From: Escherichia virus TH21
Sequence record: MT446395.1
Length of the DNA stretch: 52,087 nucleotides
Direction: 5' to 3' (one strand)
Made by a program: the position numbers and the translations under genes. Under the pieces are notes generated by a model that saw nothing but the letters and a program-made list of their open reading frames with translations, ran no database searches and was not told the origin of the DNA. Below, in pieces: positions 3,057 to 30,427 of the stretch; within the stretch, counting starts at the first letter, position 1, and each line of letters opens with the position of its first letter.

Positions 3057-4097
3057 ATGACCAAGCCAATGTTTCAATACTTCACGTCAGAAGAAATGAG
3101 CAACGACTTTTACCACAGCAAAGATGAGTGGACCGCCGAGTATGTATCAGGCTCATCACTCAGCAAGATCCACAGTACTTGCCCTGCGGCGTGGAAGTTT
3201 GAAATGAACTCGACGACTAAGGCGCTGGTCTTCGGTACGCAGTCGCATACCAATTTCGAGAGTAAGGCTCTTTTTGAACGTCAATATCGCCGCGCACCGA
3301 AAGAAAGCGAGATTGAAAACGTAATCACTAGCCAGGCGACATTGGCAACGAAATTAAAATCATTTGGCCTGACTGGTACAAGCGGCAAGCAATATCCAGA
3401 GCTAATCAAAATGATGGTTGATTGTGGAGAAGATCTCAACGTCATGTGGCTGATTAATATGATCGCACAGTGTCAGGCGTGGGCCGATGGTGTGGAACTG
3501 GTTAAAGCGGAAGACTACGACGCTTGCGTAAGTATGCGACAGGTTCTTGAAATGATTCCTGAACATAATGCTTGCATGAACAGCGAAACGGCATTCCGTG
3601 AGTATTCTTTGTTCGGCGTAATTTGTGGCGTTAAAGTTAAGGTGCGACTTGACCATGTTGATATTGTTAAAGATCCAGAAGCTATCCGACGCATGGGTTA
3701 CGATCCTGAGATTCACCCTGAAATTGTCGTCATCACTGATTACAAAACGACAATGAGCGCCAACCCGACCGAGTTCCCTCGCCTGGCGTTCAACCTTGGC
3801 TATTACCTCAAGATGGCATTGCAGCGTGACCTGTTCGTTAAGTGCTTTGAAGAAACGCGACCTGTGGTTGTGCGATTGCTGGCCCAGGAGAAGAAGGAGC
3901 CTTACTTGCCTATGGCGTACCGGATGAGTAGCGATCAGCTTAAGATTGGTCGAGCGCAGTACATGAGCGTGATTCACACCTTCTCAATGTGCGAAGCCAA
4001 TGACGTATGGCCTTCATACAATAATGGCGAGCCGGAAGTAGAACTGGATACGCCTGATTGGGTAATGAAACAGTTCAATCATATCCTAGAAGCATAG
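3057..4097 (+). CDS. recombination exonuclease, PD-(D/E)xK-type
   Basis: 346 aa; D...(I)TDYK nuclease-like motif; first gene of exo-annealase-SSB triad. Confidence 0.55.
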   Translation: MTKPMFQYFTSEEMSNDFYHSKDEWTAEYVSGSSLSKIHSTCPAAWKFEMNSTTKALVFGTQSHTNFESKALFERQYRRAPKESEIENVITSQATLATKLKSFGLTGTSGKQYPELIKMMVDCGEDLNVMWLINMIAQCQAWADGVELVKAEDYDACVSMRQVLEMIPEHNACMNSETAFREYSLFGVICGVKVKVRLDHVDIVKDPEAIRRMGYDPEIHPEIVVITDYKTTMSANPTEFPRLAFNLGYYLKMALQRDLFVKCFEETRPVVVRLLAQEKKEPYLPMAYRMSSDQLKIGRAQYMSVIHTFSMCEANDVWPSYNNGEPEVELDTPDWVMKQFNHILEA

Positions 4098-4173: not shown

Positions 4174-4830
4174 ATGCGTACATCAGAGAAGTTTTCGAAT
4201 GTTTCAGCCGCTCTAATTGCAGCTAAAAAGCAGTTTGCTATCGCAAAAAAATCAGGCTTTAACACTCACCTGAAAAACCATTACTCAAACCTGACGGACG
4301 TTCTGGAGGCCGTTGAACCAGCGCTAAAAGAGCATGACCTTATGGTTATCCAGTCAAACCTGGACACGTCAACCGAAAAGGTAATGCACATTGAGACGCT
4401 CATCCTTCACAGTTCTGGCGAGTGGCTTGCGTTCCAGTACAATATGCCGATCGAGAAGATTAGCGCCCAGGCTTACGGCTCAACAACCTCATACGGTCGC
4501 CGTTACGCATTGTGCGCAGCGCTTGGAATCACTCAGAGCGATGACGACGCTGAAATCGCGAAGCGCACGGCAGCGGACTACAAAAAACTGATCACCAACT
4601 GTGAAAAACTGGAAGACCTCCAGGTGATCTATAAGAGCGCGAAAGGTTCGCTTGGCGCGGCGGAATGGAAGATTGCAGAAGACCACTTGCAGAAGCGCAA
4701 GGCTGAACTGAGTATCGGTAACGCTCGCGGTTTCCAGCCAGCGAAAAAGGCAGATACTCAAAAGGTTGAAGACAAGGTTGCAAACGCACATTCTGAACCT
4801 GTACAATCTGAATCCATCGAACAATTCTAA
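4174..4830 (+). CDS. single-strand annealing protein, Erf-like
   Basis: 218 aa; N-terminal AAKKQF...HLKNHYSNLTDVLEAV and GRRYAL motif pattern typical of Erf-family proteins. Confidence 0.55.
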   Translation: MRTSEKFSNVSAALIAAKKQFAIAKKSGFNTHLKNHYSNLTDVLEAVEPALKEHDLMVIQSNLDTSTEKVMHIETLILHSSGEWLAFQYNMPIEKISAQAYGSTTSYGRRYALCAALGITQSDDDAEIAKRTAADYKKLITNCEKLEDLQVIYKSAKGSLGAAEWKIAEDHLQKRKAELSIGNARGFQPAKKADTQKVEDKVANAHSEPVQSESIEQF

Positions 4831-4870
4831 TCAACGGGGCTTCTGCCCCAACAAAAAAAAGGAAAACACA

Positions 4871-5314
4871 ATGCCACACGTAATCACTGGTCAGATCCGT
4901 AAATCACCATTCACTAAAGAAGGAAGCAACAACAACGGACGTTGGAAAATGTACGCCGTCGAACTTTCTGAGCGCATGAAGATTCGAAATCAGAATGGCG
5001 AGGATGAGACGGTTTATAGCAACTACCGCGCTACATTCTTCGCAAAAGAAAACGTTATGCAGTGGTATGATGAAGCGTTCCAGGAGGGCAAGGTTGTTTC
5101 AATTTCTGCCGATAACCTTCATCTATCGTCTCGACAGGGTAATGATGGCACTGTTTACGTCACCGCTGAAATGATCCGTCCTCAGTTACAATTCAGCCAG
5201 CGCGATCCAGCACAACAGCATGGTCAAGGTCAGCATCAACAACAGAAACAACAACCGCAGCAACCGCAGCAACCGCAGCAGCAAAGCCAATTCGACGACG
5301 ATATTCCTTTTTGA
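4871..5314 (+). CDS. ssb: single-stranded DNA-binding protein
   Basis: 147 aa from ATG 4871 (ORF track 4766 is an upstream extension); Q/P-rich linker and C-terminal DDDIPF tip. Confidence 0.8.
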   Translation: MPHVITGQIRKSPFTKEGSNNNGRWKMYAVELSERMKIRNQNGEDETVYSNYRATFFAKENVMQWYDEAFQEGKVVSISADNLHLSSRQGNDGTVYVTAEMIRPQLQFSQRDPAQQHGQGQHQQQKQQPQQPQQPQQQSQFDDDIPF

Positions 5315-8153: not shown

Positions 8154-9095
8154 TTATGAATACTTATCTATCAGATCCTGCGGCGTATATAACTTTCGCT
8201 CAAGGCCCATTTTGAAGTTTCCGCCGTTCGGCACTACAACTTTTAAATCACGTTCATCTGCCATGTAAAGCGTTCGCAAATCATCAGCTGGACACGCTAC
8301 GCGCAATTCACGATCGCCACGATACCGATAAGCAACAATCTCAAGATTCTCAGGGGAGAAAGTCACCCACACTTCCTGACTGGTCGCCATCTTCACACGA
8401 TAACCATCAATCAGATCGCTTGTCATATATATAGCTGCATCATCCTCGCCACTCCCCAGCTTAACCACTGAGCCGCGAGAATAATCACGCGCAAGGAAAG
8501 TGTATTCGCCATTATCATAAGCAAACATGACGTTGCACATATCCTCATCAATTCCGTCAGGGTGGACCATGTAGCACGGAAGTGCGTGTATTAGCTCCTC
8601 AGTGCCATTCTGGCGCATTTTTACGCCAACGTCATATGAATCTTCGGTTAAGCACTCATACACGCTTAAATCGGTGTTCTCGCGCTTTTCTGTGCGCTCC
8701 ATTACCGCTACGCACGACTCATGATCCGCCATCTTGCCAAGTCCTTTTTCCGGTACGCGCGACGCCCTGCGGTAAGCTTTAGCTTTGTAATCCTGAGGAA
8801 CTTTGCCAAGGAATCGACCAAGGATGTTAATCACTTCACTGTAAGGCTCACCAGTCAGCTTCATCATCCAGCCAACGCCCTTGTCGTTACCACAGCCGTT
8901 ACAGATTGCGCCGCCGTCACCAGGGGAATCCAATTCATCAGTCCACCGGAATCGGTCCTTGCCGCCACAGTAAGGGCAAGGCTGGTGCTTCTTATTGAAC
9001 ACGCCGGGCTGCAATCCACAAATGGATTGTAACGCCTCACGCCATAATCCTTTCATATATGGCAGGACTTCTTCTTTCTGGAACATCTCGTTCAC
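8154..9095 (-). CDS. DNA primase (zinc-ribbon type)
   Basis: 313 aa; CPYCGG...CNGCG zinc-binding motif; GTG start with GGAG 8 nt upstream. Confidence 0.6.
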   Translation of the reverse strand: MNEMFQKEEVLPYMKGLWREALQSICGLQPGVFNKKHQPCPYCGGKDRFRWTDELDSPGDGGAICNGCGNDKGVGWMMKLTGEPYSEVINILGRFLGKVPQDYKAKAYRRASRVPEKGLGKMADHESCVAVMERTEKRENTDLSVYECLTEDSYDVGVKMRQNGTEELIHALPCYMVHPDGIDEDMCNVMFAYDNGEYTFLARDYSRGSVVKLGSGEDDAAIYMTSDLIDGYRVKMATSQEVWVTFSPENLEIVAYRYRGDRELRVACPADDLRTLYMADERDLKVVVPNGGNFKMGLERKLYTPQDLIDKYS

Positions 9096-9714: not shown

Positions 9715-11817
9715 ATGGCTATGCGCATTAAATCCATTAAAAAACAGATAGAAGAACTTGGCCCGCAAAAGATTAAAGAGATTCAGGATAAATTCACATT
9801 TGGCGACATGGTTCCTTATGAGTATCAGTGCGTAATGTATGACGAGATCGGCAAGCGCATTGCTCGCTATAAGCATCCATTCATCGTTAAAGCGTCAGTG
9901 TCGGCAGGTAAGACGATCGGCTTTGCCATGATTGCATCGCGCGTAAAAGAAATGGGCTTGTCTATGATGATACTGGCGCGTCAGGGCGATATAGTCGCTC
10001 AGGATAGTGAGGAGATCTCAAACTTCGGCGTTCCTAACTCAGTTTACTGTGCTGGCCTGAACACAAAATCAGCTTACTTCCCAATCGTTGTCGGTTCGGA
10101 AGGATCGGTTGCAAACGGTCTGTTTAAGGCGCTTGGTGATTTTACACCTATGGTGCTGGGTATTGATGAATGTCACCAGGTGGATTGGGAAGACCTTGCC
10201 GCCGCCATCGACAACGAAGAGACGATTGAAATGATGCTCACTGAAAAGGATGAGCGTGTATTCGTTGACTACCCGAAAAACAGCGAAGGTTATGTCAATG
10301 GATACCTTGATGGCGTAGAGGTTGGCGTTCAGGTGATGGATAAGCAATTGCTGATAAGCCGGAAGACTGGCGAGCCTGTTCTTGGAACAAAACGAAGCCA
10401 GTACACGATCATAATCACTGAATTGATGCGCCGCTGCAAAGAGAAGAACGGGAAGGAATTACGCATCTTCGGCATGACTGGTTCGGAGTTCAGAGGAACA
10501 GCGCCAATTGTTGTCGATAACCCTAAGCTGCCAGGATTCTGGCGTGAGCAGGTTACTAACATCGACACCAGCTACCTGATTGAGTTCGGCTCTGTTGTTC
10601 CAACAATCTTCGGAAGTGTCGGTGACGCTGGATATGATCTGGATGAGTTTAAGGCGTCCAGTCAGGATGGAACGGCTGACTTTGGTCAGAAAGAAATGAA
10701 GGCGATGGAGAAGAAAATCCATGATAACGCCAGCATGACCAAGCGAATAATGGGAATGGTAGTCGAAGAGGCGAAGAAGCGAAACGGTGTACTGATTACG
10801 TGTTCAGGCCAGCGCCATTGCAAAGAGGCGGCGAGCTATCTGCCACCTGACGCTACCTATGAGATCATCACGGAGAAGACGAACACCAAAAAACGACAAG
10901 CGATACTGGAGGCGGCGAACCGTGGCGAGATCAAATACATATTCCAGGTGGTAGCGCTAACCACTGGCGTTAACGTTCCGTTTTGGGATTTTTCGGTAAT
11001 CCTGCGCAAGATCGGCTCACTTACCCTGCTAATACAGTTACTTGGTCGAGGTATGCGATTGCTTAAGCCGTGGCAAAAAGCGATGGGAATGGTGAAAGAA
11101 GATCACCTGGTATGGGATTTCGCTGGCACGATGGATGAGCTTGGTCAGCTTTACTTCGATCCGATTCTTGAAGAGGCTCAGTACCAGCGCCGCTTTGATG
11201 GTAAGAAAGAGCCGAAAAAATGTGAACTGTGCGGAACCGAGAACAGCTTTTACGCCCGCCGCTGCATTCACAGAGACGAAAACGGCAATCGTTGTGAGTA
11301 TTTCTGGAAATCTCGAATCTGTGAAGACCAGATTGATGATCGCACTGGTGAGGTGATTGTTAAGGGATGTGGCGCTGAGAATGACGTAGTGGCGAGAATA
11401 TGCCGTTGCTGTGATGTGAGCCTGAAAGATCCCAATGATAATCTGACTGGTAAGGCTTACACCAAAAACGACTGGTGCACAGTGAATAGTTTTGAAGTAA
11501 CGCTGACACGCAATCAGACTGGTATTCTTTATCGTTACGATCTGACAGATTCAGTTGGAGTTAATTTCATCGCGTATGAAAAGTTCTTCCCGCAGTCAAC
11601 GGCACAGGTATGTCACACGATATGGAAACAGAAAGGGGTGCTGCCTCATGTGCATGACAGTAAGATCGCAAAGTTAATGGCAGCTTACAGAAGTGCTAAA
11701 ATGATTTTAAACAACGCTCACCACATAGCGCATCCAGTGCGGGTAACTCACCGCAAGAATGCAAAAGGTGAGGACATCATTTCACGTAAGGATTTTGGAT
11801 TGGACGGTAACTTATGA
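9715..11817 (+). CDS. ATP-dependent helicase, superfamily 2
   Basis: 700 aa; Walker A SAGKT; DECH box (GIDECHQV). Confidence 0.75.
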   Translation: MAMRIKSIKKQIEELGPQKIKEIQDKFTFGDMVPYEYQCVMYDEIGKRIARYKHPFIVKASVSAGKTIGFAMIASRVKEMGLSMMILARQGDIVAQDSEEISNFGVPNSVYCAGLNTKSAYFPIVVGSEGSVANGLFKALGDFTPMVLGIDECHQVDWEDLAAAIDNEETIEMMLTEKDERVFVDYPKNSEGYVNGYLDGVEVGVQVMDKQLLISRKTGEPVLGTKRSQYTIIITELMRRCKEKNGKELRIFGMTGSEFRGTAPIVVDNPKLPGFWREQVTNIDTSYLIEFGSVVPTIFGSVGDAGYDLDEFKASSQDGTADFGQKEMKAMEKKIHDNASMTKRIMGMVVEEAKKRNGVLITCSGQRHCKEAASYLPPDATYEIITEKTNTKKRQAILEAANRGEIKYIFQVVALTTGVNVPFWDFSVILRKIGSLTLLIQLLGRGMRLLKPWQKAMGMVKEDHLVWDFAGTMDELGQLYFDPILEEAQYQRRFDGKKEPKKCELCGTENSFYARRCIHRDENGNRCEYFWKSRICEDQIDDRTGEVIVKGCGAENDVVARICRCCDVSLKDPNDNLTGKAYTKNDWCTVNSFEVTLTRNQTGILYRYDLTDSVGVNFIAYEKFFPQSTAQVCHTIWKQKGVLPHVHDSKIAKLMAAYRSAKMILNNAHHIAHPVRVTHRKNAKGEDIISRKDFGLDGNL

Positions 11818-12242
11818 TTACAGATAAAGGCGACTACCTGGAATATTACACTCCAGACAAATCGGATACATGGACCGAAAGCAAACACCAGATCGATTGC
11901 GTGACCTGGACTAAAGTTAGGCATGGCGACCTATTATTCTGGCACACCGTTAATGAGGGCGAGAAGACGATGCATTCAGCCCTTGTTGACGGTCAGAGCG
12001 GGTTATTGAAGGGGGTTAGTGACTTTGTATTCCTTCTCGGCCTGTTCGGTAAATATCCGTTCGGGGCCATAGAATTGAAGCGAGTAAATAAAAGCGGGAA
12101 AGGCAAGGCATCACCAGTCAGCAAGAAGCAGAAAGATTTCCTCCGGCGTGTCCGTGAGCGTGGAGGATTCGCGGCGGTGGCGTACGGCCAGGAGGAATAC
12201 AAGAAAGCTGTTGCTGATATGCTGAATAGCACGAATTGCTAA
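11814..12242 (+). CDS. VRR-NUC-type nuclease
   Basis: 142 aa; D...ELK PD-(D/E)xK core (GVSDFVF...GAIELKR); ATGA overlap with helicase. Confidence 0.55.
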   Translation: MITDKGDYLEYYTPDKSDTWTESKHQIDCVTWTKVRHGDLLFWHTVNEGEKTMHSALVDGQSGLLKGVSDFVFLLGLFGKYPFGAIELKRVNKSGKGKASPVSKKQKDFLRRVRERGGFAAVAYGQEEYKKAVADMLNSTNC

Positions 12243-17724: not shown

Positions 17725-19308
17725 TTACCCCAGCAGTCGCGGATTAATGTAAATTTTATCACCAATCAGGCACGTATAGTTTTTCTCATCCAGCATAGGG
17801 ATCAGATGGTCTTTGATGCGAGTCATTACACCAGCCTGGCCCTCGAATGGCTTAACCTTACGCGCCGCTTCATATAGGGATCGGACACCTACAACGCCTT
17901 TCCCGTTCTTGCCTTGCTTGATCAGGATGTCAATAAGCTTGTTCATCTCCGCATGGTCGCCAGCGTGACCAGCAGCGTTTGCAGATGACAGATAAGTTTT
18001 ACTCAGTTCCTGGAACATAATTACAGCTTCTTGCATTGTATCAAGCTCAATCTCTCTGGACTTCTGCGGACTTCCGCCATTGGGATTGAACCAGTTACGC
18101 ACAGTGTGAAGAACCGCCGCGATCCTGATGGCCTGCTTATCAAACTTACCAAGCGCGCCGCGAAGCATTGTGTGTGAATACTTCCCGCCGTCCGCAAGGT
18201 GAGGTTCCATATCCTGACGCGCACGGTTGAGATATTTCATCGCCGACGTGCTCACTGTCAGGTTGACTTCGTGTTCGCTCATGATCTCATGGACCAGACG
18301 GAAGTAGTCCGCCTTGAGTCCGCCATCAATCGGCTCATATGTTGATTCGCCTTTTTCGTCAACGAATACACGCTCGCCAAGGAATGACTTCTCACGCACA
18401 AGCAAGAAACGTTCTGACACACCGATACCACGCGCACCAGCATTCATGATCGCGTTGATTGTTTCATCCTGTGCAATTACAGAGATGCAACCCATAGCGA
18501 TAAAGCTCATGTTATTGTCTGCGTTCGCACGCGCGATAGATACGTTACCAGCATCCCATGCCTTAAGCACAAGTTCGCTGTTCGTTTTCTTTGAGCCGTC
18601 ACCATAGGTCATGCCTAACAGTGAGTTTACGCTCGTTGCTTCATCCGAGATCACAGAGAAGTTCCCCTGGCGGTTGTTGATTCGCGCCAGACCTTCCGGC
18701 GTGGTGTCGGATACGGGGAATACGATGTCACAAAGGCGTTCCAGTTTTTCTTCCAGTTCTTCTTTTTCCTCAAACAGTGCCGCCATGTCGGACGGTGATT
18801 TTTCCTGCTTCATCTCCTTGGATAGAGCAGATAGTTTAGCCATAATCTTCTTGCGGTCGCGCTTTCGGATCTCGTTGAGTCGTTCAGTCTCTGCGATCAT
18901 CGGGGCCAGCGAAAGTGAGTTAATGGCTGATTTACCTGTCGATGGTGGCTGACTGGTTACGACGTAAAGCGCGGTCGGCTGTTGTGTTCCGTGATACTCA
19001 ACCGTAAAGCGGCCCAGCATGGCGGCTGATATGCATCCGAGGAAATGCATGTAAGCGGACGACTCGGGGAACTGAACTGAACGAGCGGCATTGCTTGACA
19101 GCTTACCAACGACATCATAATCGTTACCAAGTGAGATAACCGGATATTTGTCACCGCCCGAGTCGATTTCTGTTGGTGCTTTCCAGAACGACTGGCTTTG
19201 CCTGTACCCGTTCGCATTGATGGCAACGCGCAGGGGCGGCAGGTTATCGGCGGCGGCCACAGCCATAACCTGATCGATAGACAATTTATCTTCGTTAAAA
19301 TCAAACAT
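17725..19308 (-). CDS. P-loop NTPase, possibly VirE/DUF3987-like primase-associated helicase
   Basis: 527 aa from ATG 19308 (AAGGAG 7 nt upstream); Walker A-like SQPPSTGKS; N- and C-terminal segments recur in 24573..25127. Confidence 0.45.
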   Translation of the reverse strand: MFDFNEDKLSIDQVMAVAAADNLPPLRVAINANGYRQSQSFWKAPTEIDSGGDKYPVISLGNDYDVVGKLSSNAARSVQFPESSAYMHFLGCISAAMLGRFTVEYHGTQQPTALYVVTSQPPSTGKSAINSLSLAPMIAETERLNEIRKRDRKKIMAKLSALSKEMKQEKSPSDMAALFEEKEELEEKLERLCDIVFPVSDTTPEGLARINNRQGNFSVISDEATSVNSLLGMTYGDGSKKTNSELVLKAWDAGNVSIARANADNNMSFIAMGCISVIAQDETINAIMNAGARGIGVSERFLLVREKSFLGERVFVDEKGESTYEPIDGGLKADYFRLVHEIMSEHEVNLTVSTSAMKYLNRARQDMEPHLADGGKYSHTMLRGALGKFDKQAIRIAAVLHTVRNWFNPNGGSPQKSREIELDTMQEAVIMFQELSKTYLSSANAAGHAGDHAEMNKLIDILIKQGKNGKGVVGVRSLYEAARKVKPFEGQAGVMTRIKDHLIPMLDEKNYTCLIGDKIYINPRLLG

Positions 19309-19378
19309 TAAAAAACTCCTTAGTTGGTGCGCTAATGTTAACGCACCTATGGTAAAACCGCTTGCCAAAAAATGCTAC

Positions 19379-20897: not shown

Positions 20898-21113
20898 TTA
20901 GAACGGGATTCCGTCATCAAATTTTAAGCGGTAGTCGAAATCATCCCCGATTCCGTCTACTGACTGGTTGCTTTCGCTTTCCAGATCCATATCCATAACG
21001 CCCAATGCGTCATCGAGTTCGATGCATCCGTAAGCAACCTTGAGCGCCCACTCTTCATTGAGTCCGGCCTCAAGTGCCGCGCGGTGGCGGCTCCAGAAAT
21101 TATCTTGATGCAC
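20898..21113 (-). CDS. small acidic protein ending in an SSB-like C-terminal tip (KFDDGIPF)
   Basis: 71 aa; GTG start with GGAG 6 nt upstream; C-terminus resembles the DDDIPF tip of SSB. Confidence 0.5.
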   Translation of the reverse strand: MHQDNFWSRHRAALEAGLNEEWALKVAYGCIELDDALGVMDMDLESESNQSVDGIGDDFDYRLKFDDGIPF

Positions 21114-21422: not shown

Positions 21423-21854
21423 TTACGGTTTTTTCGGTGGGCGCTGCTTGTGCACGTAAAACGGCGTCGGCGTAATGCAAGGCTGATAACCAGTCAGGAT
21501 ACGATTGCTTGCTTCCGTAGCGTGCGCAACTGCCTCAACCTGTTGAGATGTCGCCACCTGGCTACGGCGCAACAACCGACTTTTGCTCATCCGCTGGTTA
21601 GTGCCGCTTAACTTCATATACTGATAATCCAACGGCTCGAACGCGACACGCTTCTCCATGAACACCTTGCGGCTACTGGCAACGAATACCTTACTGCCTT
21701 TGCGTCCAGCAATGCTGCGAATGGAAGTGTACATTGACTCATGAATTTGAGCCTTGAAGCGCCAGGCTCCGTACGCCCAAATATACATCCGGCCTGATGG
21801 CGTGATGAATCGCGTGGTGCCATCCGTCGCCTTAAAGATGATGCCGTGTCTCAT
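21423..21854 (-). CDS. hypothetical basic protein
   Basis: 143 aa, Arg/Lys-rich. Confidence 0.45.
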   Translation of the reverse strand: MRHGIIFKATDGTTRFITPSGRMYIWAYGAWRFKAQIHESMYTSIRSIAGRKGSKVFVASSRKVFMEKRVAFEPLDYQYMKLSGTNQRMSKSRLLRRSQVATSQQVEAVAHATEASNRILTGYQPCITPTPFYVHKQRPPKKP

Positions 21855-21864
21855 TTGCCTTTCC

Positions 21865-22074
21865 TCAGATTAGTGAAATTTCGACGGTGACTTTCGCCTG
21901 ACCAATTACCCGCGCACCGCCATACAACAACGCGCATTCAATGATGTGCTCATCCATCGCGGCTGTTTGTGATGGCAGACCATCCAACAGGCGGAAGATT
22001 TCGGACCGTGAGTTGTCGCAACTGATCAGATACTCGTTGCCGCTACCGATAAACTGCACAATGTCAAACATCAT
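21865..22074 (-). CDS. hypothetical protein
   Basis: 69 aa from ATG 22074 (GGAG 8 nt upstream); ORF track start 22140 is TTG. Confidence 0.4.
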   Translation of the reverse strand: MMFDIVQFIGSGNEYLISCDNSRSEIFRLLDGLPSQTAAMDEHIIECALLYGGARVIGQAKVTVEISLI

Positions 22075-22250
22075 TTCTGTAGCTCCGTTTCGTAGTAGTC
22101 GTAGGTATTGAACTGATCTCTTGCGTTCATCTTCTCGCAAACCTGCTTTGCCATCTGCTCACTTAGGCACACGCAGTGCACTTGAGTGTCATATTCCGGT
22201 TCGCGTGGCTCAGCCATCACAACGTAGCAATGCATTTTAACAGTGGTCAT
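22071..22250 (-). CDS. hypothetical Cys/His-rich small protein (59 aa), possible zinc binder
   Basis: not in ORF track; HC..HCVC..C pattern; ATGA overlap downstream. Confidence 0.35.
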   Translation of the reverse strand: MTTVKMHCYVVMAEPREPEYDTQVHCVCLSEQMAKQVCEKMNARDQFNTYDYYETELQK

Positions 22251-22252
22251 AA

Positions 22253-22537
22253 TTATTTCTTCCCGTCGAATGTTAAATAGTTCACATGGAATGCAACGAT
22301 TCCATCGTGAGCGATTGTCGTGTGCGGACGAACGATGATGATCACCTTATCCGTTTTCTTGTCACGAAGCACCGCGTCGCCGTGCTCAAACATGTAAACA
22401 GTGCGATCAGCCATCTGCCTCACGCTCTCATTTCTGCAACCGTAGAATCGCTGAACCGCACGAATTACCGCATCATTCTCTTTGGCCTGAACCTCGACCT
22501 GCATACGGTAGGCCATTTGCTGAATATCGTTTTTCAT
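22253..22537 (-). CDS. hypothetical protein
   Basis: 94 aa; preceded by cassette leader. Confidence 0.45.
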   Translation of the reverse strand: MKNDIQQMAYRMQVEVQAKENDAVIRAVQRFYGCRNESVRQMADRTVYMFEHGDAVLRDKKTDKVIIIVRPHTTIAHDGIVAFHVNYLTFDGKK

Positions 22538-22592
22538 CTCTATATCCTTCGTTTCGATGGAGTGAATCTTAGCAAATCACTCCTGATTGGTA

Positions 22593-22609
22593 ATTAGCAA
22601 ATCGTGCTA
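22593..22609 (-). promoter_or_regulatory. cassette palindrome TAGCACGATTTGCTAAT
   Basis: followed by 7-bp-stem hairpin ggagtga..tcactcc and leader ATCGAAACGAAGG. Confidence 0.45.
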
Positions 22610-22610
22610 T

Positions 22611-22937
22611 TTATGCGATGTCGAACTCCGCTGCGTACGCTTCTTTGATACCCGCTTCACGCATGGTGCGCTTGCTGATTTTTCGCGGGTGACGGTACTG
22701 AGCGTTAGGCTTAATCCACCAGAAGCAAGCAGTTTCACGAACGATTTCATAAGCGCTGTAACGAGTGAAAATATCGCGTTCTGCGTCCGGCTGGGATACA
22801 CAGGTCAGGCTCTTAACTTCCGGCTTGATTTCTTCCCAAACGAATGAATCCATACCGTTAACCTTGCAAGCTACCATCACATATTCAACACCGTTTTCGA
22901 TTTTGATGATGTGGTTACCGCGATTTTCGTATTTCAT
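22611..22937 (-). CDS. hypothetical protein
   Basis: 108 aa. Confidence 0.45.
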   Translation of the reverse strand: MKYENRGNHIIKIENGVEYVMVACKVNGMDSFVWEEIKPEVKSLTCVSQPDAERDIFTRYSAYEIVRETACFWWIKPNAQYRHPRKISKRTMREAGIKEAYAAEFDIA

Positions 22938-22997
22938 TTGCTTGCTCTCTGTGTCTCGTTTCGATGAAGTAATAATACCCCATCGTGAGATCTGGCG

Positions 22998-23014
22998 TTT
23001 AGCAATTCGTGCTA
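22998..23014 (-). promoter_or_regulatory. cassette palindrome TAGCACGAATTGCTAAA
   Basis: followed by TATTAT and leader ATCGAAACGAGAC. Confidence 0.5.
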
Positions 23015-23016
23015 TT

Positions 23017-23214
23017 TCAGAATTTAACTTCCTCGACTACCTGGACCATCTCGTATCCAAGGCGGTAACTGTCACCAAGGATTAATCGGCCCATGAACTG
23101 ATCGTTCGTGAAGCTCTCCTTACCCATGGTCCGAAGCGATCCGTGATGGATGATAGTGTCGCCAACCTTCACGTCGTTCTTGTGCGTCAAAACAATTTTG
23201 TTATCCATTATCAA
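23017..23214 (-). CDS. hypothetical protein
   Basis: 65 aa. Confidence 0.4.
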   Translation of the reverse strand: MIMDNKIVLTHKNDVKVGDTIIHHGSLRTMGKESFTNDQFMGRLILGDSYRLGYEMVQVVEEVKF

Positions 23215-23221
23215 GTGCTCC

Positions 23222-23404
23222 TTACATGTGTTTCAGGTAGAAAGCGATTTCACGGATGTTGTCTTCTGGATGAGCCTTCACGACTACCGCGAACATCTTC
23301 TCAACCAGCGCCTTGGTGCTCTCAGGGTTATAACCTTCCTGGACCAGCAGGGCAATAGTGTTTTCGATGGTAACTGGTGAGTTCTTGTTGATGCGCTTAG
23401 CCAT
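23222..23404 (-). CDS. hypothetical protein, first gene of minus-strand accessory operon
   Basis: 60 aa; RBS AAAGGAA; leader ATCGAAACGACAC. Confidence 0.4.
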   Translation of the reverse strand: MAKRINKNSPVTIENTIALLVQEGYNPESTKALVEKMFAVVVKAHPEDNIREIAFYLKHM

Positions 23405-24573: not shown

Positions 24574-25127
24574 TGTTTGATTTCAACGAAGATAAGTTAA
24601 CTGATGACCAAGTGATGGAAGTCGCCAGGCAAGATAACCTTCTGCCATTGCGCGTGGCAATCAACGCAAACGGATACCGTCAAGCTTTCAAGTTCTGGTG
24701 CAGCGCAGAAGAGATGCTGCGCGTCAAACTGAGCCACAAACAAAGCGTCGTGGTTAAAAGGATTAGCCACCAGGGCCGCAACGGAAAGGGAGTGGTTGGC
24801 ATTAGATCTCTATACGAGGCAATCCGAAAGGTCCAGCCATTCGTCGGGCGCGAAGGGATTATGCATGACCTGACAAATAACATCATCCCAGCACTACAGG
24901 AGGCAGGAATTGTTTGCCTCATTGGCGATAAGATTTATGTGCATCCGGCCCTGGTGGGAATGGATGAACGAGACGTGTACACCTGGTGCAGTCAGCACCG
25001 ATCCGACGCGCGACGTTCTCACTACGTGCCACCGCAGACAACAATCCATGGCTATGATGCCGATGAGGTGGAGAAGGCCATCCAGTTCTACCGGAAAGCG
25101 AAATCTCTCCTGAACGGTGAATGCTAA
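24573..25127 (+). CDS. domain-deleted paralogue of the 17725..19308 P-loop protein (N- and C-terminal segments only)
   Basis: 184 aa; MFDFNEDKL..PLRVAINANGYRQ and GKGVVG.RSLYEA..K..PF...CLIGDKIY match both ends of the 527-aa protein; no Walker A. Confidence 0.5.
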   Translation: MFDFNEDKLTDDQVMEVARQDNLLPLRVAINANGYRQAFKFWCSAEEMLRVKLSHKQSVVVKRISHQGRNGKGVVGIRSLYEAIRKVQPFVGREGIMHDLTNNIIPALQEAGIVCLIGDKIYVHPALVGMDERDVYTWCSQHRSDARRSHYVPPQTTIHGYDADEVEKAIQFYRKAKSLLNGEC

Positions 25128-25342
25128 TGCTTATAAAATGTGTGTATGTAAGGCAAGCCAATCACCACAACCTTTCAGTTGTAAATGGCGGGATATACGT
25201 GGCTAAGCCAATACCTTGTTTTAATGGCTCATACTACATCAAGGTTGATGGCAATGAGTACATAGTGAAGACGATAGGTGAAGCTCTTATGATAAAGAGC
25301 CTTGGTGTTATAATGGCTAAATTCGAAATCGTTCGTGAATAG
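25127..25342 (+). CDS. hypothetical protein
   Basis: 71 aa from ATG 25127 (ORF track 25121). Confidence 0.4.
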   Translation: MLIKCVYVRQANHHNLSVVNGGIYVAKPIPCFNGSYYIKVDGNEYIVKTIGEALMIKSLGVIMAKFEIVRE

Positions 25343-25356
25343 CACAAATTGCTAAA
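25340..25356 (+). promoter_or_regulatory. cassette palindrome TAGCACAAATTGCTAAA
   Basis: TAG stop overlaps; hairpin gggtagtcagctatgattaccc; leader ACGAAGAGGAA. Confidence 0.5.
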
Positions 25357-25412
25357 CAACAAATCGGGTAGTCAGCTATGATTACCCTATCAACAACGAA
25401 GAGGAAATGATC

Positions 25413-25619
25413 ATGGAAACTGTACGTATTGACGATGTTCACTTTGACCAAGCTGAGGTCAGTGTCACGATGAGATCAGTTCGCGGCAATGTTGTCAACC
25501 TGGACTTCGATCCTGACGGTTACGCAGATTGCCAAACACTGATGCATTACTCACCTGACGCGGCTCGCAAATTAGCGGCGGCACTTATTCTGGCAGCGGA
25601 AGAGGCAGAAAAGCAATGA
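25413..25619 (+). CDS. small acidic protein, paralogue family member 1
   Basis: 68 aa; shares V.I.D..AEV....Y.PD.ARKLAAAL..AAEEAE pattern with 25616, 26394 and (more distantly) 26621. Confidence 0.5.
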   Translation: METVRIDDVHFDQAEVSVTMRSVRGNVVNLDFDPDGYADCQTLMHYSPDAARKLAAALILAAEEAEKQ

Positions 25620-25834
25620 TTGATATTCGAGTTAATTCAGCCTGGGATCAGGAGACGGAAATCTCAGTAATCAATGTTCCGTTTGGAAAGATGCGTAAGC
25701 GCGTGCACCTGGACCTTTCGCCGGATTCGCAAGTGGATGGCGCTGGCATGACATACACCGCAGAGCAGGCGCGCGAACTTGCTGCGGCGCTAATTAAGGC
25801 AGCTGAGGAAGTGGAGGCGGAAGTCGATGAGTAA
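25616..25834 (+). CDS. small acidic protein, paralogue family member 2
   Basis: 72 aa; ATGA overlap with member 1. Confidence 0.5.
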   Translation: MIDIRVNSAWDQETEISVINVPFGKMRKRVHLDLSPDSQVDGAGMTYTAEQARELAAALIKAAEEVEAEVDE

Positions 25835-26027
25835 ATTCAGGATCGCATTGATTGAAACAACAACCGCCTTCGGTCATCCGGTCAAGTGGTATGCCGTCCA
25901 AAAACGGGTGGCTTTGTTCTGGTGGGCTACAGTGGCCCATGCAAGCCAGCTTTCCCAGGCTCGCTACTGGCTGCATAAGTCCGGCGCACCGCATCGCAAA
26001 GAGAAAGTAGTGAGGATTATCGAATGA
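25827..26027 (+). CDS. hypothetical protein
   Basis: 66 aa, Trp-rich basic. Confidence 0.4.
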   Translation: MSKFRIALIETTTAFGHPVKWYAVQKRVALFWWATVAHASQLSQARYWLHKSGAPHRKEKVVRIIE

Positions 26028-26314
26028 AGAAACTAATTTTATTAGCAGCACTGGCTCTGGCTGGATGTGATTTCGGAAGCACCCGTGTAGATTCAGAGGC
26101 TCGGCAGAAGATGCCAGTGAATGTCAACGATCGCGTCCAGGTTGTGAAGATTCAGGAGTTCAGGGATGAACTGGCATATGAGAACGTCAGAGCGATATAC
26201 GTCATCACCGATAAGGACACTGGTCAGGAATACATCGGATTAAGCGGTGTCGGGATCGTGGAAGTTGGTCGCCATGGTTGCGGCAAGGGATGCTCCAGAG
26301 AAGATGAACGATAG
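26024..26314 (+). CDS. small lipoprotein
   Basis: 96 aa; signal peptide with lipobox LAGC. Confidence 0.55.
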   Translation: MKKLILLAALALAGCDFGSTRVDSEARQKMPVNVNDRVQVVKIQEFRDELAYENVRAIYVITDKDTGQEYIGLSGVGIVEVGRHGCGKGCSREDER

Positions 26315-26328
26315 CACTTTTTGTTAAA
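26312..26328 (+). promoter_or_regulatory. cassette palindrome TAGCACTTTTTGTTAAA
   Basis: TAG stop overlaps; hairpin gtgcatttgctatagtgcac. Confidence 0.45.
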
Positions 26329-26393
26329 ACTTCCGTGGGTGCATTTGCTATAGTGCACTCATTGAAGTGAAACAATCAACTAAGGGGTAATTT

Positions 26394-26624
26394 ATGAGCA
26401 CAACCGCCGTACGCATCGCTGACGACTCAGGCGAACAGGCCGAGGTAATGGTAAAGAAACTGCATAGCAGCGCCCAGGGCTTTGCATTCAAGGTGTGCGT
26501 TGACTTCAATCCTGAAGAGTATGTTGACGCATCAAGTTACATGGTGTACACACCAGACCAGGCGCGCAAACTGGCATGTCACCTGATGGAAGCGGCCTAC
26601 CGCGCTGAGAAGGGGGTTTTATGA
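26394..26624 (+). CDS. small acidic protein, paralogue family member 3
   Basis: 76 aa; YTPDQARKLACHLMEAAYRAEK tail. Confidence 0.5.
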   Translation: MSTTAVRIADDSGEQAEVMVKKLHSSAQGFAFKVCVDFNPEEYVDASSYMVYTPDQARKLACHLMEAAYRAEKGVL

Positions 26625-26827
26625 TTACAGATCGCAAGCGCTTCCAGGATATGGACGATGATGATTGCTGGATTGACACGATGACCAATAGCGATAACGT
26701 CACTGTAGAAATCGTTATTGACGACGACTCGGGCGCATTCCCGATGCAAGATCCGGCTACCGTACGCGCAATGGGTGAACACCTTATCAAAATGGCTGAC
26801 TACATGGAGCGCCACAATGAACAATGA
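26621..26827 (+). CDS. small acidic protein, probable paralogue family member 4
   Basis: 68 aa; ATGA overlap with member 3; DPATVRAMGEHLIKMADYME resembles family tail. Confidence 0.4.
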   Translation: MITDRKRFQDMDDDDCWIDTMTNSDNVTVEIVIDDDSGAFPMQDPATVRAMGEHLIKMADYMERHNEQ

Positions 26828-27035
26828 AGAAATGGTTAAGATCCGCATTATCAAGTCACCTTATGGCGGCGTAGATAAAAGCAAGCTGCCAGTGGTGGCG
26901 ATGGCCTGGAAATGGGAGGGCGATAACGGAGAGCCATTTTACATGGTTGACGCCGACTTCCTTCCGGCGCTCAGCAAAAAAGGTATGCTTCCTGGCGACT
27001 GGCCCTTTGCAGAAGATGAGGTTGAAGTGCTATGA
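26817..27035 (+). CDS. hypothetical protein
   Basis: 72 aa from ATG 26817 (GGAG 7 nt upstream). Confidence 0.4.
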   Translation: MNNEEMVKIRIIKSPYGGVDKSKLPVVAMAWKWEGDNGEPFYMVDADFLPALSKKGMLPGDWPFAEDEVEVL

Positions 27036-27130
27036 AGTTCAAATTAGTTGACGTGCTGCAATTGCTGTGTATCGGTTTATCGTGGGTGATGCTGTTCCTG
27101 GTGGTAATCTTCCTGGCTGTGGTGAAATAG
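27032..27130 (+). CDS. 32-aa hydrophobic membrane peptide
   Basis: not in ORF track; single predicted TM helix; ATGA overlap; stop TAG is part of the next cassette. Confidence 0.35.
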   Translation: MKFKLVDVLQLLCIGLSWVMLFLVVIFLAVVK

Positions 27131-27144
27131 CACGAATTGGTAAA
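27128..27144 (+). promoter_or_regulatory. cassette palindrome (TAGCACGAATTGGTAAA)
   Basis: followed by ctgactggTATACT. Confidence 0.45.
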
Positions 27145-27198
27145 ACGATATTCTCCCTGACTGGTATACTTCTTTCATACCAACAAGGGAGAAATGAA

Positions 27199-27387
27199 AT
27201 GACCACTTACACCACGATTTACACTCACTGCGGCAAGGCGTTCACGGCACTGGCTGAGGATATGGAATATCTGCCTTGGCACCAGGTGTGGAAGATGCAC
27301 AAAATCACTTCCACCGGAACGCAGGAGTGGTTCTTGAGAAAGATTTACGTGGCTGAGGTTATTCACCACAACGAAAAATTCGAATAG
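27199..27387 (+). CDS. hypothetical protein
   Basis: 62 aa from ATG 27199 (RBS AAGGGAGA). Confidence 0.4.
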   Translation: MTTYTTIYTHCGKAFTALAEDMEYLPWHQVWKMHKITSTGTQEWFLRKIYVAEVIHHNEKFE

Positions 27388-27401
27388 CACTTTTTGTTAA
27401 A
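27385..27401 (+). promoter_or_regulatory. cassette palindrome TAGCACTTTTTGTTAAA
   Basis: hairpin aaggccatttgatatagtggcctt. Confidence 0.45.
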
Positions 27402-27467
27402 CCTTCCGCAAGGCCATTTGATATAGTGGCCTTATTGAAGCAAAACAACCAATCAGAGGATTTGCAG

Positions 27468-27670
27468 ATGTTTACTGAAAAAGAGTTTGAGCAGTTTTCC
27501 GCCTGGTCAATATGTCAGGCAGCGCTGACCAGATGGATCGCATAAACAGCCGTCTTGAGATGCCAAAGTTCATCGAAGCGGTAGGCCGCAAGGCCTGCGA
27601 TCGCATGTGGCACTTAATCGAGCATTACGGCGTAACACCAGCAACACTTAAATCGGAGCACATGAAATGA
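27468..27670 (+). other. two overlapping small ORFs in different frames (27468..27545 and 27512..27670): possible frameshifted gene or overlapping micro-genes
   Basis: first ORF has RBS AGAGGA; second lacks an RBS and ends in ATGA overlap with the next gene. Confidence 0.3.
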
Positions 27671-28050
27671 AAGTACGTTTACTTAACCCTAGCATCTATG
27701 CCGATCCGAGCTATCGCAAGATTCATCCGAAAGAGACAAACCCGCGCGATCCTGGTTCTTACCCAATCGTTGTAGAGGGGTTCTTTGATGAGTGCAGCCT
27801 GATTATGAAGAAATATGGCTCTGAAATGAACTCAATCAAGGTTGGTGGTGATGAACTGGATCGCGTATTCAAAAGCTATTTCAGCGACGGTCGCCCGATG
27901 GACTCATGCTACGGCAGTGCGGAAGTTCTCGGTTGGTGGAATGAGCCAGGTAAACCGAAAGCATGGGAGCCAGTAGGACCGTTCGATTTCTGGAACAAAT
28001 TAAAGGCATCACGCGAAGTTGGCGAAACTGTAGGGAAGGGTTATTTATGA
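27667..28050 (+). CDS. hypothetical protein
   Basis: 127 aa. Confidence 0.45.
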   Translation: MKVRLLNPSIYADPSYRKIHPKETNPRDPGSYPIVVEGFFDECSLIMKKYGSEMNSIKVGGDELDRVFKSYFSDGRPMDSCYGSAEVLGWWNEPGKPKAWEPVGPFDFWNKLKASREVGETVGKGYL

Positions 28051-28226
28051 TTATTTTATGCATCGTGCTTTACATCCTGGGCGCACTTCCGGTTTATGCA
28101 ATTGCAAAAGACGTTAGAAATATCGATAACAAATGGTACGACATGGTAATCGTTGCTGCTATCTGGCCCCTACCCATTGCTCTAGGAGTGGTTAAGGGCG
28201 TCTACAAAAAGCTGAAGGAGCAATGA
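28047..28226 (+). CDS. small membrane protein (two predicted TM helices)
   Basis: 59 aa from ATG 28047 (ATGA overlap). Confidence 0.4.
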   Translation: MIILCIVLYILGALPVYAIAKDVRNIDNKWYDMVIVAAIWPLPIALGVVKGVYKKLKEQ

Positions 28227-28228
28227 TT

Positions 28229-28432
28229 ATGATTCCGTTGAAGCCAATAGTTTTTATGCGTAATGGGATATGGTTTGCCGTAGTTTGCGGTACTGGATAC
28301 ATCTATTCAAAAACCGCAGGTCGATGGTTTAAGGCTTTAAGCCAGGCGGCGTTATTTACTAATTTGGTTACAGCAGTTCGCACAAGAACGGCATATCAGG
28401 TTAAGGGGTTAAAAAATGCAAGTATACACTAA
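28229..28432 (+). CDS. hypothetical protein
   Basis: 67 aa from ATG 28229 (AAGGAG 8 nt upstream). Confidence 0.4.
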   Translation: MIPLKPIVFMRNGIWFAVVCGTGYIYSKTAGRWFKALSQAALFTNLVTAVRTRTAYQVKGLKNASIH

Positions 28433-28634
28433 CAGTAAAGGTATTGAATTTTGCGCGGTCGGAGGTGTGGTCCTGCGCACTGGTGGCGGGTACGGGATTA
28501 TTAACACCTCAGGCATCACACAGGATCAGTTGGTAAAGGGCATCCAGGCTGGAATCTTTACCTATCACTCATCGTTGACGGCTGATGATTACATCACACT
28601 TGATGCTGCGGTTCGCGTTGGGTTCATCGAATAG
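28416..28634 (+). CDS. hypothetical protein
   Basis: 72 aa. Confidence 0.4.
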   Translation: MQVYTNSKGIEFCAVGGVVLRTGGGYGIINTSGITQDQLVKGIQAGIFTYHSSLTADDYITLDAAVRVGFIE

Positions 28635-28706: not shown

Positions 28707-29246
28707 ATGAATCAGATGTACACCATGATTAAGCACGAATTGAATACCGCGGAAATCAATGCGCCAGTCTACGTGTTTGATTACGACGGTACGCTGTCGG
28801 ACGGATCGCATCGTTTGCATAAGTTGCCTACAAAGGATTTGCACCTTACTGAGTCATGGTCTGAGTTCAATCGATTGTCAGAGCGTGATGAGCCTATCGA
28901 ATCAACCATTCAGGTAATGAATAGCCTGTACTACTCCGGCGCGTTCATCATCATACTAACCGGGCGCTCAGATGAGGTGTGCGAGATTTCAACTAAATGG
29001 CTTCACGATGCTGGCGCTAAATACAACGTTCTGGTCATGCGCCAGGATGATGACAACCGCAAGGATACGATCATCAAGGAAGAATTTTTACGATACATTG
29101 GCTTGCACCGCATCACCGCAGCGTGGGATGATAGCGTGAGTGTTATAAAGCACTTCCGCAGCTTAGGTATTACCACCTATCAGGTTTGTGATTACGCCGA
29201 TAACAATCGAGAGGATTTAAAATCTCATGGGGTGCATAAGAAGTGA
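28707..29246 (+). CDS. HAD-superfamily phosphatase/nucleotidase-like protein
   Basis: 179 aa; motif I FDYDGTLSDG (DxDGT). Confidence 0.5.
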   Translation: MNQMYTMIKHELNTAEINAPVYVFDYDGTLSDGSHRLHKLPTKDLHLTESWSEFNRLSERDEPIESTIQVMNSLYYSGAFIIILTGRSDEVCEISTKWLHDAGAKYNVLVMRQDDDNRKDTIIKEEFLRYIGLHRITAAWDDSVSVIKHFRSLGITTYQVCDYADNNREDLKSHGVHKK

Positions 29247-29730
29247 TTCAGAGTACCTAAAATTCCTATTCAGTTACAATGACGGGGTGATAACTTGGCG
29301 AAACAAGTCATCACCTCAAAGTAGGATTGTTTTAGGTGAGCGAGCAGGAAGTTTTGATAAGGATGGATACCTGATCGTAAGGGTTAGAAATCAAACATCG
29401 TCGATACATAGGATCGTGTGGGTTTATCATAACGGAGAAATACCAGCCGGATTTGAAATTGACCATGTTGACGGCGATAAACTAAATAACAGGATTGAAA
29501 ACTTAAGACTCACAACAAGATCTGTTAATTGCAGTAATCAGAGAAAGAGAATTGATAACACCAGCGGTGTTTGTGGTGTAACATTCATGAAAGATAGGCT
29601 AAAATACAGGGCGCAAGTCAGAGGTGTAAGGCTTGGTCAATTCGATACTAAAGAAGAAGCCGCCGAGGCTGTTGCTAAGTACAGATCATATTCTGGCGGA
29701 TTCACTGAAAGACACGGTAAGGAGATTTAA
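29227..29730 (+). CDS. HNH homing endonuclease (HNH + AP2-like DNA-binding domain)
   Basis: 167 aa; HNH core IDHVDGDKLNNRIENLR; paralogous to 36891..37373. Confidence 0.65.
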   Translation: MGCIRSDSEYLKFLFSYNDGVITWRNKSSPQSRIVLGERAGSFDKDGYLIVRVRNQTSSIHRIVWVYHNGEIPAGFEIDHVDGDKLNNRIENLRLTTRSVNCSNQRKRIDNTSGVCGVTFMKDRLKYRAQVRGVRLGQFDTKEEAAEAVAKYRSYSGGFTERHGKEI

Positions 29731-29733
29731 AAA

Positions 29734-30354
29734 ATGTCAAAGATTATCATTCTCAACGGTCCAGCTTCGGTTGGTAAAGACACGATTGGCAACGCCCTAG
29801 CAGCAGATTACAACTGCATCCCGACCAGCTTCAAGCGTCCGATGTTTGAGATTGCAGCATCCATCCTTGGGGCCAGGGCTTTTTCAAAGTTCATCACAGC
29901 ATACGACGACCGCGATCAGAAAGAGATGCCTCAGAGCTTCCTTGGTGGCAAGACATGCCGCGAGTTCATGATCTGGATTAGCGAGTCTGTGGTAAAGCCG
30001 CTATTTGGCAACCAGCAATTCGGAAAGCTGATGAGCGAACATATCAAGCTGTGTGACGAAGGATTCTGTTTTGTGTGTACTGATGGCGGCTTCCCTGATG
30101 AAGTGATCAGGCTCGTTGAAGATGGTCACGATGTTACCCTGGTCCGCTTGTTCATGGATGGCAAGACTTTCGCGGGAGATAGCCGTGATTACATCCGCAT
30201 CAAGCAATCGCACTTCCCTGATTACAAGAAATATAACGAGCATGATGTGCATCTGGTAAATGGTGATGTTGATGATGGCGTCCTTAAAGTAGTTCGCGCT
30301 TGCTTGGTTAGTCCTTCAATGGATGATGATTGGGCAGACGATATTCCTTGGTAA
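29734..30354 (+). CDS. deoxynucleoside monophosphate kinase with acidic SSB-tip-like C-terminus
   Basis: 206 aa; P-loop GPASVGKDT; C-terminus DDDWADDIPW. Confidence 0.6.
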   Translation: MSKIIILNGPASVGKDTIGNALAADYNCIPTSFKRPMFEIAASILGARAFSKFITAYDDRDQKEMPQSFLGGKTCREFMIWISESVVKPLFGNQQFGKLMSEHIKLCDEGFCFVCTDGGFPDEVIRLVEDGHDVTLVRLFMDGKTFAGDSRDYIRIKQSHFPDYKKYNEHDVHLVNGDVDDGVLKVVRACLVSPSMDDDWADDIPW

Positions 30355-30355
30355 A

Positions 30356-30372
30356 TAGCACGAATTGCTAAA
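30356..30372 (+). promoter_or_regulatory. cassette palindrome TAGCACGAATTGCTAAA
   Basis: followed by terminator-like hairpin cccgc-tacg-gcggg plus TTTTGTT and TATAGT. Confidence 0.5.
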
Positions 30373-30427
30373 CCCGCTACGGCGGGTTTTGTTATAGTTA
30401 GTTCACACCAAACGAGAGGAAAGCAAA

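Follow-up and report, generated by a model that had tools for sequence, protein, structure and literature searches.

The predicted deoxynucleoside monophosphate (dNMP) kinase encoded by Escherichia virus TH21 carries, at its extreme C-terminus, a short acidic tip that closely resembles the C-terminal tip (SSB-Ct) of SSB, the bacterial single-stranded DNA-binding protein. The stretch analysed here, referred to as the window, comprises 52,087 nucleotides (sequence record MT446395.1) and represents a T1-like coliphage (Drexlerviridae); the kinase gene is located at 29734..30354 on the plus strand. The tip is conserved within one lineage of these kinases, recurs on two further proteins of the same genome, and is also found at the ends of many unrelated DNA-metabolism proteins of other viruses. 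By analogy with SSB, it is proposed with moderate confidence that the tail docks the kinase into the SSB-Ct-binding pockets of host or phage proteins of DNA metabolism.

The kinase tail and its conservation

The open reading frame (ORF) at 29734..30354 translates into 206 amino acids plus a stop, beginning with MSKIIILNGPASVGKDT and ending with SMDDDWADDIPW, followed by TAA. An earlier description of this DNA, made from its letters and called here the original prediction, reported a kinase with the P-loop GPASVGKDT that ends in DDDWADDIPW, and the translation bears this out. The P-loop occupies residues 9-17 (29758..29784), within a globular kinase domain formed by residues 1-190 (29734..30303). 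This domain is followed by a variable linker, LVSPSMDD (residues 191-198; 30304..30327), and by the SSB-Ct-like tip D-W-A-D-D-I-P-W (residues 199-206; 30328..30351), all on the plus strand. The stop codon (30352..30354) directly follows W206, which places the tip at the very end of the protein, with a free alpha-carboxylate. Both the domain match and the confident part of the structural model end at about residue 190, and the predicted local distance difference test score (pLDDT) is 68 and then 52 over residues 191-206, with a short helix modelled at residues 196-200. The tail contains five Asp or Glu residues and no Lys or Arg. According to the model, it is apparently a flexible C-terminal extension of roughly 16 residues.

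The tip octapeptide of E. coli SSB is DFDDDIPF; its binding to ExoI and RecO involves Phe2 and DIPF as two hot spots, and both the DFDD and the DIPF halves contribute (PMC10143822). The kinase tip is identical to it at five of the eight positions, and both Phe residues are replaced by Trp. Affinity rises with bulkier aromatics at octapeptide positions 2 and 8, and the I6L exchange increases the affinity for ExoI about fivefold (PMC10143822). By analogy, the natural kinase variants (W/W, and Leu in place of Ile in tails ending ..DGLPW) may point to equal or higher affinity. The SSB-Ct pockets of DnaG, ExoI, RecO, chi and PriA have in common a basic rim and a salt bridge formed with the carboxylate at the C-terminus. 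The DnaG pocket binds indole-plus-carboxylate fragments, and that screen also yielded fragments binding to PriA, RNase HI and chi (PMC5872125). The kinase tip possesses the extreme C-terminal position, the I-P pair, the acidic residues with a second aromatic and the flexible linker that characterize SSB-Ct, and it departs from it in the final residue, where Trp instead of the C-terminal Phe is found in each of the 62 distinct kinase tails.

Within the clade of the window, 84 of the 91 full-length proteins have a tail ending in P-W, and the remaining seven can apparently be put down to truncation, contig-end artefacts, a frameshift or one P-to-T exchange. Counting back from the last residue (position 0) of the distinct tails, W at 0 and P at -1 are both invariant (62/62), followed by I or L at -2 (60/62), D or G at -3 (54/62), D at -4 (60/62) and W at -6 (42/62). 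Positions -9 to -15, on the other side, show an entropy above 2 bits and insertions or deletions among relatives, the linker varying in length by up to about five residues. Several unrelated database proteins (P0079, P0084, P0127, P0151) end in the string ..NSTNC; such ends are probably a contig-end or adaptor artefact, which mimics tail loss in a few kinase entries.

The kinase family as a whole comprises 2,517 representatives (50% identity, E<1e-3), and a homologue is present in 1,427 phage records. Among the 150 best family representatives, an SSB-like tail is carried by three and missing from 147. It is absent from the kinases of T1 (ST62) and TLS (Dmk), and Rtp is without a kinase. The absence of a conserved acidic tail from homologous kinases had been named by the original prediction as evidence against it, and the outcome is divided: most homologues, including ST62 and Dmk, have no such tail, and in the lineage of the window itself the tail is conserved. 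Since most homologous kinases do without it, the tail is not part of the kinase function; judging by its distribution, it is an accessory module of one lineage, strongly conserved within that lineage. Four tail-bearing sub-lineages were recognized, namely the clade of the window, P0092-95 (EEPDEIPW), NBD2 with P0123 (VDWSDDIPW and GEDDIPW), and P0121 (VEDDIPW). They are 42-55% identical in the kinase domain, yet [DE]-D-I-P-W is kept, and the tail-bearing kinases group together in neighbour-joining trees.

The enzyme class was assigned from a profile and from the fold. The PHROGs profile phrog_139, 'deoxynucleoside monophosphate kinase', matches residues 1-189 (E=1.7e-42). The AlphaFold2 model, built on 74 homologues (mean pLDDT 91, predicted template modelling score 0.84, domain pLDDT 84-97), is closest among solved structures to the dNMP kinase of T4 (gp1, 1DEK). 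In the 74-sequence alignment, N8, G14, K15, D16, K34, R76, E84, K88, F120, E123, D149, S150 and R151 are invariant, of which G14, K15 and D16 lie in the P-loop, and the DGGF..E and GDSR motifs are, like the P-loop, invariant across the family. Pfam gave no match for the kinase and NCBIfam none that was significant, and searching the PDB with either the protein or the family profile returned P-loop matches only. The class rests on PHROGs and the fold comparison, from which the activity of a T4 gp1-like dNMP kinase is inferred. The body has a P-loop nucleoside monophosphate (NMP) kinase fold and not the oligonucleotide/oligosaccharide-binding (OB) fold, only the tip being common with SSB.

The same tip on other phage proteins

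The original prediction also held that the tip is common to three proteins of the genome, which a six-frame survey of the window bears out. A D/G-I-P-[FW] end occurs in three of 521 ORFs of at least 30 amino acids, these being the SSB, a 71-amino-acid protein and the kinase, and each of them keeps the tip across its relatives. With the amino acid frequencies of the window itself, 0.011 IP[FW] ends would be expected among 90 gene proxies (Poisson probability of at least three, 2.3e-7). Common to all three is the pattern [F/W]-x-D-[D/G]-I-P-[F/W]-COOH, with an aromatic at -6 as in E. coli SSB (DFDDDIPF). On this comparison of sequences, the likeness to the SSB tip is closer than had been stated originally.

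The phage SSB (4871..5314, plus strand; 147 amino acids; phrog_44 SSB, E=1.4e-26) ends in QFDDDIPF. Its ORF is listed as 4766..5314, and the ATG at 4871 is the probable true start. All six Drexlerviridae SSBs examined end in F-[DN]-[DS]-D-I-P-F. The SSB of TLS (L007 31336..31761) has the C-terminus NNEPPMDFDDDIPF, which we take to be nearly equal to the last 13-14 residues of E. coli SSB, the host sequence being assumed beyond DFDDDIPF; on this assumption, the comparison suggests that the TLS tail was copied from the host. The SSB tip (5297..5309) and the kinase tip (30337..30349) have 13 identical bases, GACGATATTCCTT, a stretch that, as a sequence match, is too short to separate common origin from codon preference.

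The third carrier, described originally as a small acidic protein at 20898..21113, does exist; it lies on the minus strand, has 71 amino acids and ends in KFDDGIPF. This early protein is T1 gp6-like and belongs to phrog_9085, further members of which are T1 gp6 (L004 47118..47327), TLS gp75 (L007 46721..46963), NBD2 gp34 (L005 48449..48682) and the products of L003 44190..44363 and L208 862..1101. Across Drexlerviridae, the N-terminal 40 or so residues of the family are conserved, the C-terminal half is variable, being either acidic or provided with a CxC..CxxC knuckle, and the end is invariably [I/F/L]-P-[F/W]. In 26 aligned homologues of the 71-amino-acid protein, I69, P70 and F71 are invariant and the preceding 30 residues change completely. 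In its model, three short helices make up the N-domain (residues 6-39) and are followed by an acidic tail of low confidence, and the family resembles an adaptor or a decoy that would act on the SSB hub. Both the SSB and the T1 gp6-like protein bear the tip in the window, T1, TLS, NBD2, AugustePiccard and L208. Additionally, a metagenomic genome with a kinase of sub-lineage B encodes the tailed kinase together with a small protein ending in CRECIPF.

A scan of IMG/VR for DNA encoding DDIPW followed by TAA matched at least 120 loci. In 115 of the 120 matches listed, this string closes an ORF of at least 45 amino acids, against about 12% estimated for random in-frame matches, and the proteins so ended form at least 28 clusters. 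Among the matches listed, the SSB types comprise canonical SSB (PF00436), DUF669, Enc34-type and phrog_18154 proteins; the other carriers include SF2 DNA helicases (L024 and the L038 helicase), an AAA_5 ATPase (L113), a DUF6511 protein (L088), Pam3_Gp34-like proteins (L030/L033/L091) and the NBD2 kinase. The occurrence of DDIPW on several SSB families indicates that Trp-ended tips are a natural variant of the SSB end. Related tips are also present, for example on an AEP primase ending in EEEIPF, which is encoded beside the Pam3_Gp34-like protein in the L030/L033/L091 loci, and in L105, where an SSB is accompanied by a PolB-exo-like nuclease ending in LDEIPF. Several IMG/VR loci have two tip-bearing proteins side by side, and SSBs of canonical and non-canonical type with DDIPW in place of DDIPF are common in viromes. 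As far as sequences can indicate, the tip behaves as a portable docking module on DNA-metabolism proteins.

Possible roles of the tail

T1 and TLS break down the host genome, reuse its nucleotides and carry no DNA polymerase gene (PMC11447400). Presumably, host enzymes are used by these phages for DNA synthesis. Given the breakdown of host DNA and the reuse of nucleotides, a dNMP kinase fits the recycling step, in which it would probably re-phosphorylate the dNMPs released by degradation of the host chromosome. Besides SSB, the window encodes a PDDEXK exonuclease (3057..4097), ERF (4174..4830), a primase (8154..9095), two helicases (9715..11817 and 17725..19368) and a VRR-NUC nuclease (11814..12242). 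No DNA polymerase gene was found in it, most of its large ORFs mapping to genes of T1, TLS, Rtp, NBD2 or AugustePiccard, none of which is annotated as a polymerase.

In the docking proposal, one kinase lineage would have gained the C-terminal extension of about 16 residues, the last eight of which imitate the tip of bacterial or phage SSB. By analogy with SSB-Ct, the terminal aromatic and the free carboxylate would insert into the basic-rimmed hydrophobic pocket of SSB-interacting proteins. An adjacent basic ridge or a second hot spot would be the contact site of the acidic residues and of the other aromatic, at -6. It is the partners of SSB, and not SSB itself, that such a tip would bind. The kinase could thereby be docked on the usual SSB binders of the host (Pol III chi, DnaG, PriA, ExoI, RecO and others) or on recombination or replication proteins of the phage; SSB partners include DNA-degrading enzymes such as ExoI, in addition to the replisome (PMC5872125, PMC10143822). 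Docking would put dNMP phosphorylation where DNA is degraded or synthesised, and the tether to the replication fork imagined in the original prediction may be one version of it. A bolder and rather doubtful form of the idea considers the tip to be a portable address label that phages put on many proteins (kinase, helicase, primase, exonuclease, AAA ATPase and small adaptors), connecting them to the SSB interaction hub. In T1-like phages, the double-Trp kinase tip, with its supposedly higher affinity, would then displace SSB from a nuclease or a replisome subunit of the host, such as ExoI, RecJ or Pol III chi, and so physically couple the breakdown of host DNA, dNMP re-phosphorylation and phage DNA synthesis. 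Such coupling would be a minimal case, accessible to genetics, of the much-debated channelling of DNA precursors to the fork.

Several observations weigh against docking. Most of the kinase family, including the enzymes of T1 and TLS with the same lifestyle, works without a tail, and any benefit of it must therefore be dispensable. The last residue of the kinase tip is always Trp and never Phe, as it is in the SSBs of E. coli and the phage, which could mean a different pocket or partner; a Trp-ended variant of SSB-Ct is nevertheless plausible, because several SSB families end in DDIPW and indole-carboxylate fragments bind the pockets. No gene of the window was exclusive to tail-bearing genomes in a comparison that was a weak test, with only five reference genomes (T1, TLS, Rtp, NBD2 and AugustePiccard). 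In the absence of a co-occurring phage gene, the partner would be a core protein if encoded by the phage, and otherwise a host protein. The enzyme class itself is derived from fold and profile, with neither a Pfam match nor a sequence-level match in the PDB. Moreover, strict monophyly of the tail-bearing kinases was obtained in one neighbour-joining tree and not in the second (bootstrap 26-27%), and the tail-less P0103 nests among the tail-bearing kinases in one tree. With such bootstrap values and disagreeing trees, a single gain of the tail cannot be firmly claimed; the sequences are most simply read as one old gain followed by retention, and repeated gain is possible. Under either history, the pattern of conservation among the proteins suggests that the tip is under selection; at the codon level, the six DNA sequences compared offer few synonymous options.

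That the tail is a neutral or chance extension is accordingly hard to believe, and this explanation is strongly disfavoured. Most phages' kinases do work without it, but W and P are invariant in the 62 distinct tails with the linker free to vary, the tip has been retained between lineages only 42-55% identical, and three such ends in one genome have a chance probability of P=2.3e-7. An unlikely, more serious alternative is that the tail acts as a decoy, competing with host SSB for its partners and blocking repair, restart or SSB-linked defence, the kinase domain being a mere carrier. The tip does copy the host SSB-Ct, its two Trp residues may raise affinity (as can be inferred from PMC10143822), and the phage makes a small protein with the build of a decoy or adaptor, in which an IPF tip follows a small helical domain and a disordered acidic linker. 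The presence of this dedicated small protein, however, makes the same job on an enzyme less economical, and no link to defence or anti-defence was found. Furthermore, the tips of other viruses sit on enzymes that need recruitment (helicases, a primase, an exonuclease), which favours recruitment over inhibition.

The remaining alternatives concern other binding sites of the tail or another enzyme class. In the literal form of the original idea, the tail would bind the OB fold of phage or host SSB, so that the kinase rides on SSB or modulates its DNA binding. The SSB tip is reported to bind its own OB fold in cis, and in E. coli SSB, T7 gp2.5 and T4 gp32 the acidic tails reportedly lie back against the surface that binds DNA. 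This fold-back, together with the fact that the phage encodes its own SSB, speaks for such an arrangement, which is nonetheless improbable. Binding of single-stranded DNA by SSB would displace the tip in this model, and the kinase would therefore attach to free SSB rather than to SSB at the fork. The I-P-aromatic-COOH signature is, in addition, what the partners of SSB read (PMC5872125), and charge mimicry alone would not require an invariant P and W. A regulatory role within the molecule, in which the acidic aromatic tail folds back on the nucleotide-binding cleft and gates activity, appears quite improbable. NMP-kinase clefts are basic, the tail is acidic, and a short helix is modelled at residues 196-200; on the other hand, the model shows no confident docking of the tail (pLDDT 52-68), linker length differs among relatives by as much as about five residues, and the same tip on the phage's SSB, on the small protein and on unrelated viral proteins would be left without an account. 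A similarly improbable alternative makes the protein the split 5'-kinase half of a polynucleotide kinase-phosphatase (Pnkp), with the tail recruiting end-healing to single-stranded gaps or nicks. The neighbouring 'PNK' gene does encode the HAD phosphatase domain only and is syntenic with the kinase gene across Drexlerviridae. The closest structural and profile similarity of the kinase is not to polynucleotide kinases, which disfavours the split-Pnkp idea. A beta-clamp-binding motif was also considered and rejected, the tail being unlike motifs of the QL[SD]LF type.

Genomic setting and comparison with known systems

The kinase gene is preceded by a Shine-Dalgarno sequence, AAGGAG (29719..29724, plus strand), 9 nucleotides 5' of its ATG and within the end of an HNH endonuclease gene, and is directly followed on the same strand by an intrinsic-terminator-like hairpin (30370..30389) with a T-run to 30399; in phage ETEP102, a terminator is annotated at the same place. 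The nearest isolate for the kinase is vB-EcoS-XT34 (genus Nouzillyvirus), in which the protein is annotated as hypothetical (98.5% protein identity). Upstream on the plus strand are the 'PNK' gene (28707..29246), which has the HAD phosphatase domain of Pnkp only (PF25109 HAD_PNKP, E=1.6e-17), and the HNH endonuclease gene (29227..29730; PF13392 HNH_3, E=2.2e-20). The 'PNK' gene adjoins the kinase gene in NBD2, T1, Klebsiella phages and locus L208. It is labelled 'polynucleotide kinase' in the annotation of relatives, yet only the Pnkp HAD phosphatase domain was matched, and its product has 179 amino acids in the window versus about 205 in XT34, ETEP102 and NBD2. The HNH gene overlaps the 3' end of the phosphatase gene and parts it from the kinase gene, an arrangement identical in T1; it is absent at this position from XT34, ETEP102 and NBD2.

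Compared with the five reference genomes, the window is a mosaic, the kinase and several early genes having their closest counterparts in the Braunvirinae phage AugustePiccard (84%) and most structural and replication genes having theirs in the Vilniusvirus NBD2. Two runs of small ORFs (about 21423..23400 and 25121..28634) have no counterpart in these five genomes and are probably accessory early genes.

The kinase itself has known relatives in the broad-specificity dNMP kinases T4 gp1 and T5 Dmp, with which it has in common the P-loop GxxxxGKDT, the NMP-kinase fold and phrog_139, its fold being closest to 1DEK. T4 gp1 differs in its size (240 residues in 1DEK versus 190 in the domain of the window), and the identity in the structural alignment is 16%. 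A literature search on mimicry of the SSB tip by other phage proteins, on DDIPW and on a link between kinase and SSB returned no description of this tail, of an SSB tip on a nucleotide kinase or of the tip of the T1 gp6-like family. The principle has precedents in the SSB-Ct hub, the gp4 tail of T7 and the precursor complex of T4.

In T7, the acidic C-terminal tails of the gp2.5 SSB and of the gp4 helicase-primase bind gp5 polymerase at basic patches (PMC12593628, PMC12339929). The likeness lies in an SSB-like, acidic, aromatic-ended tail on a second replication protein that is not an SSB, both docking on the same partner. The difference is that the T7 tails bind the phage's own polymerase, whereas no polymerase gene was found in the window and the carrier is a metabolic enzyme. 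To our knowledge, the T7 gp2.5 and gp4 tails have no I-P motif.

For decades it has been debated, chiefly on the basis of the large T4 complex, whether DNA-precursor enzymes are physically coupled to replication. In this dNTP synthetase complex, studied by the Mathews laboratory, precursor enzymes are reported to bind gp32. As in T4, the kinase of the window would be linked physically, by way of the SSB system, to the replication apparatus. The T4 enzymes, however, reportedly bind gp32 itself, whereas the SSB tip is copied on the kinase of the window, which would bind the binders of SSB; the window yielded no other precursor enzyme, and no multi-enzyme complex is indicated. If the docking proposal is true, a single tail of 16 residues on a small enzyme would supply the link between precursors and replication. 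A phage of about 90 genes that is easily engineered would offer a simple handle on precursor channelling.

A further close parallel is the bacterial SSB-Ct. It is a hub motif for more than 14 genome-maintenance proteins, and the comparative data suggest that mimicry of it may be a general phage route into the host SSB hub, which bears on the takeover of replication. The SSB-Ct pocket is also an antibacterial target, and the natural Trp/Trp and Leu variants point in the same way as synthetic high-affinity peptides. Like the kinase tip, SSB-Ct is C-terminal and acidic, ends in I-P-aromatic and follows a flexible linker. It differs in being borne by an OB-fold DNA-binding protein on a linker of about 56 residues, whereas in the phage a linker of about eight residues joins the tip to a nucleotide kinase.
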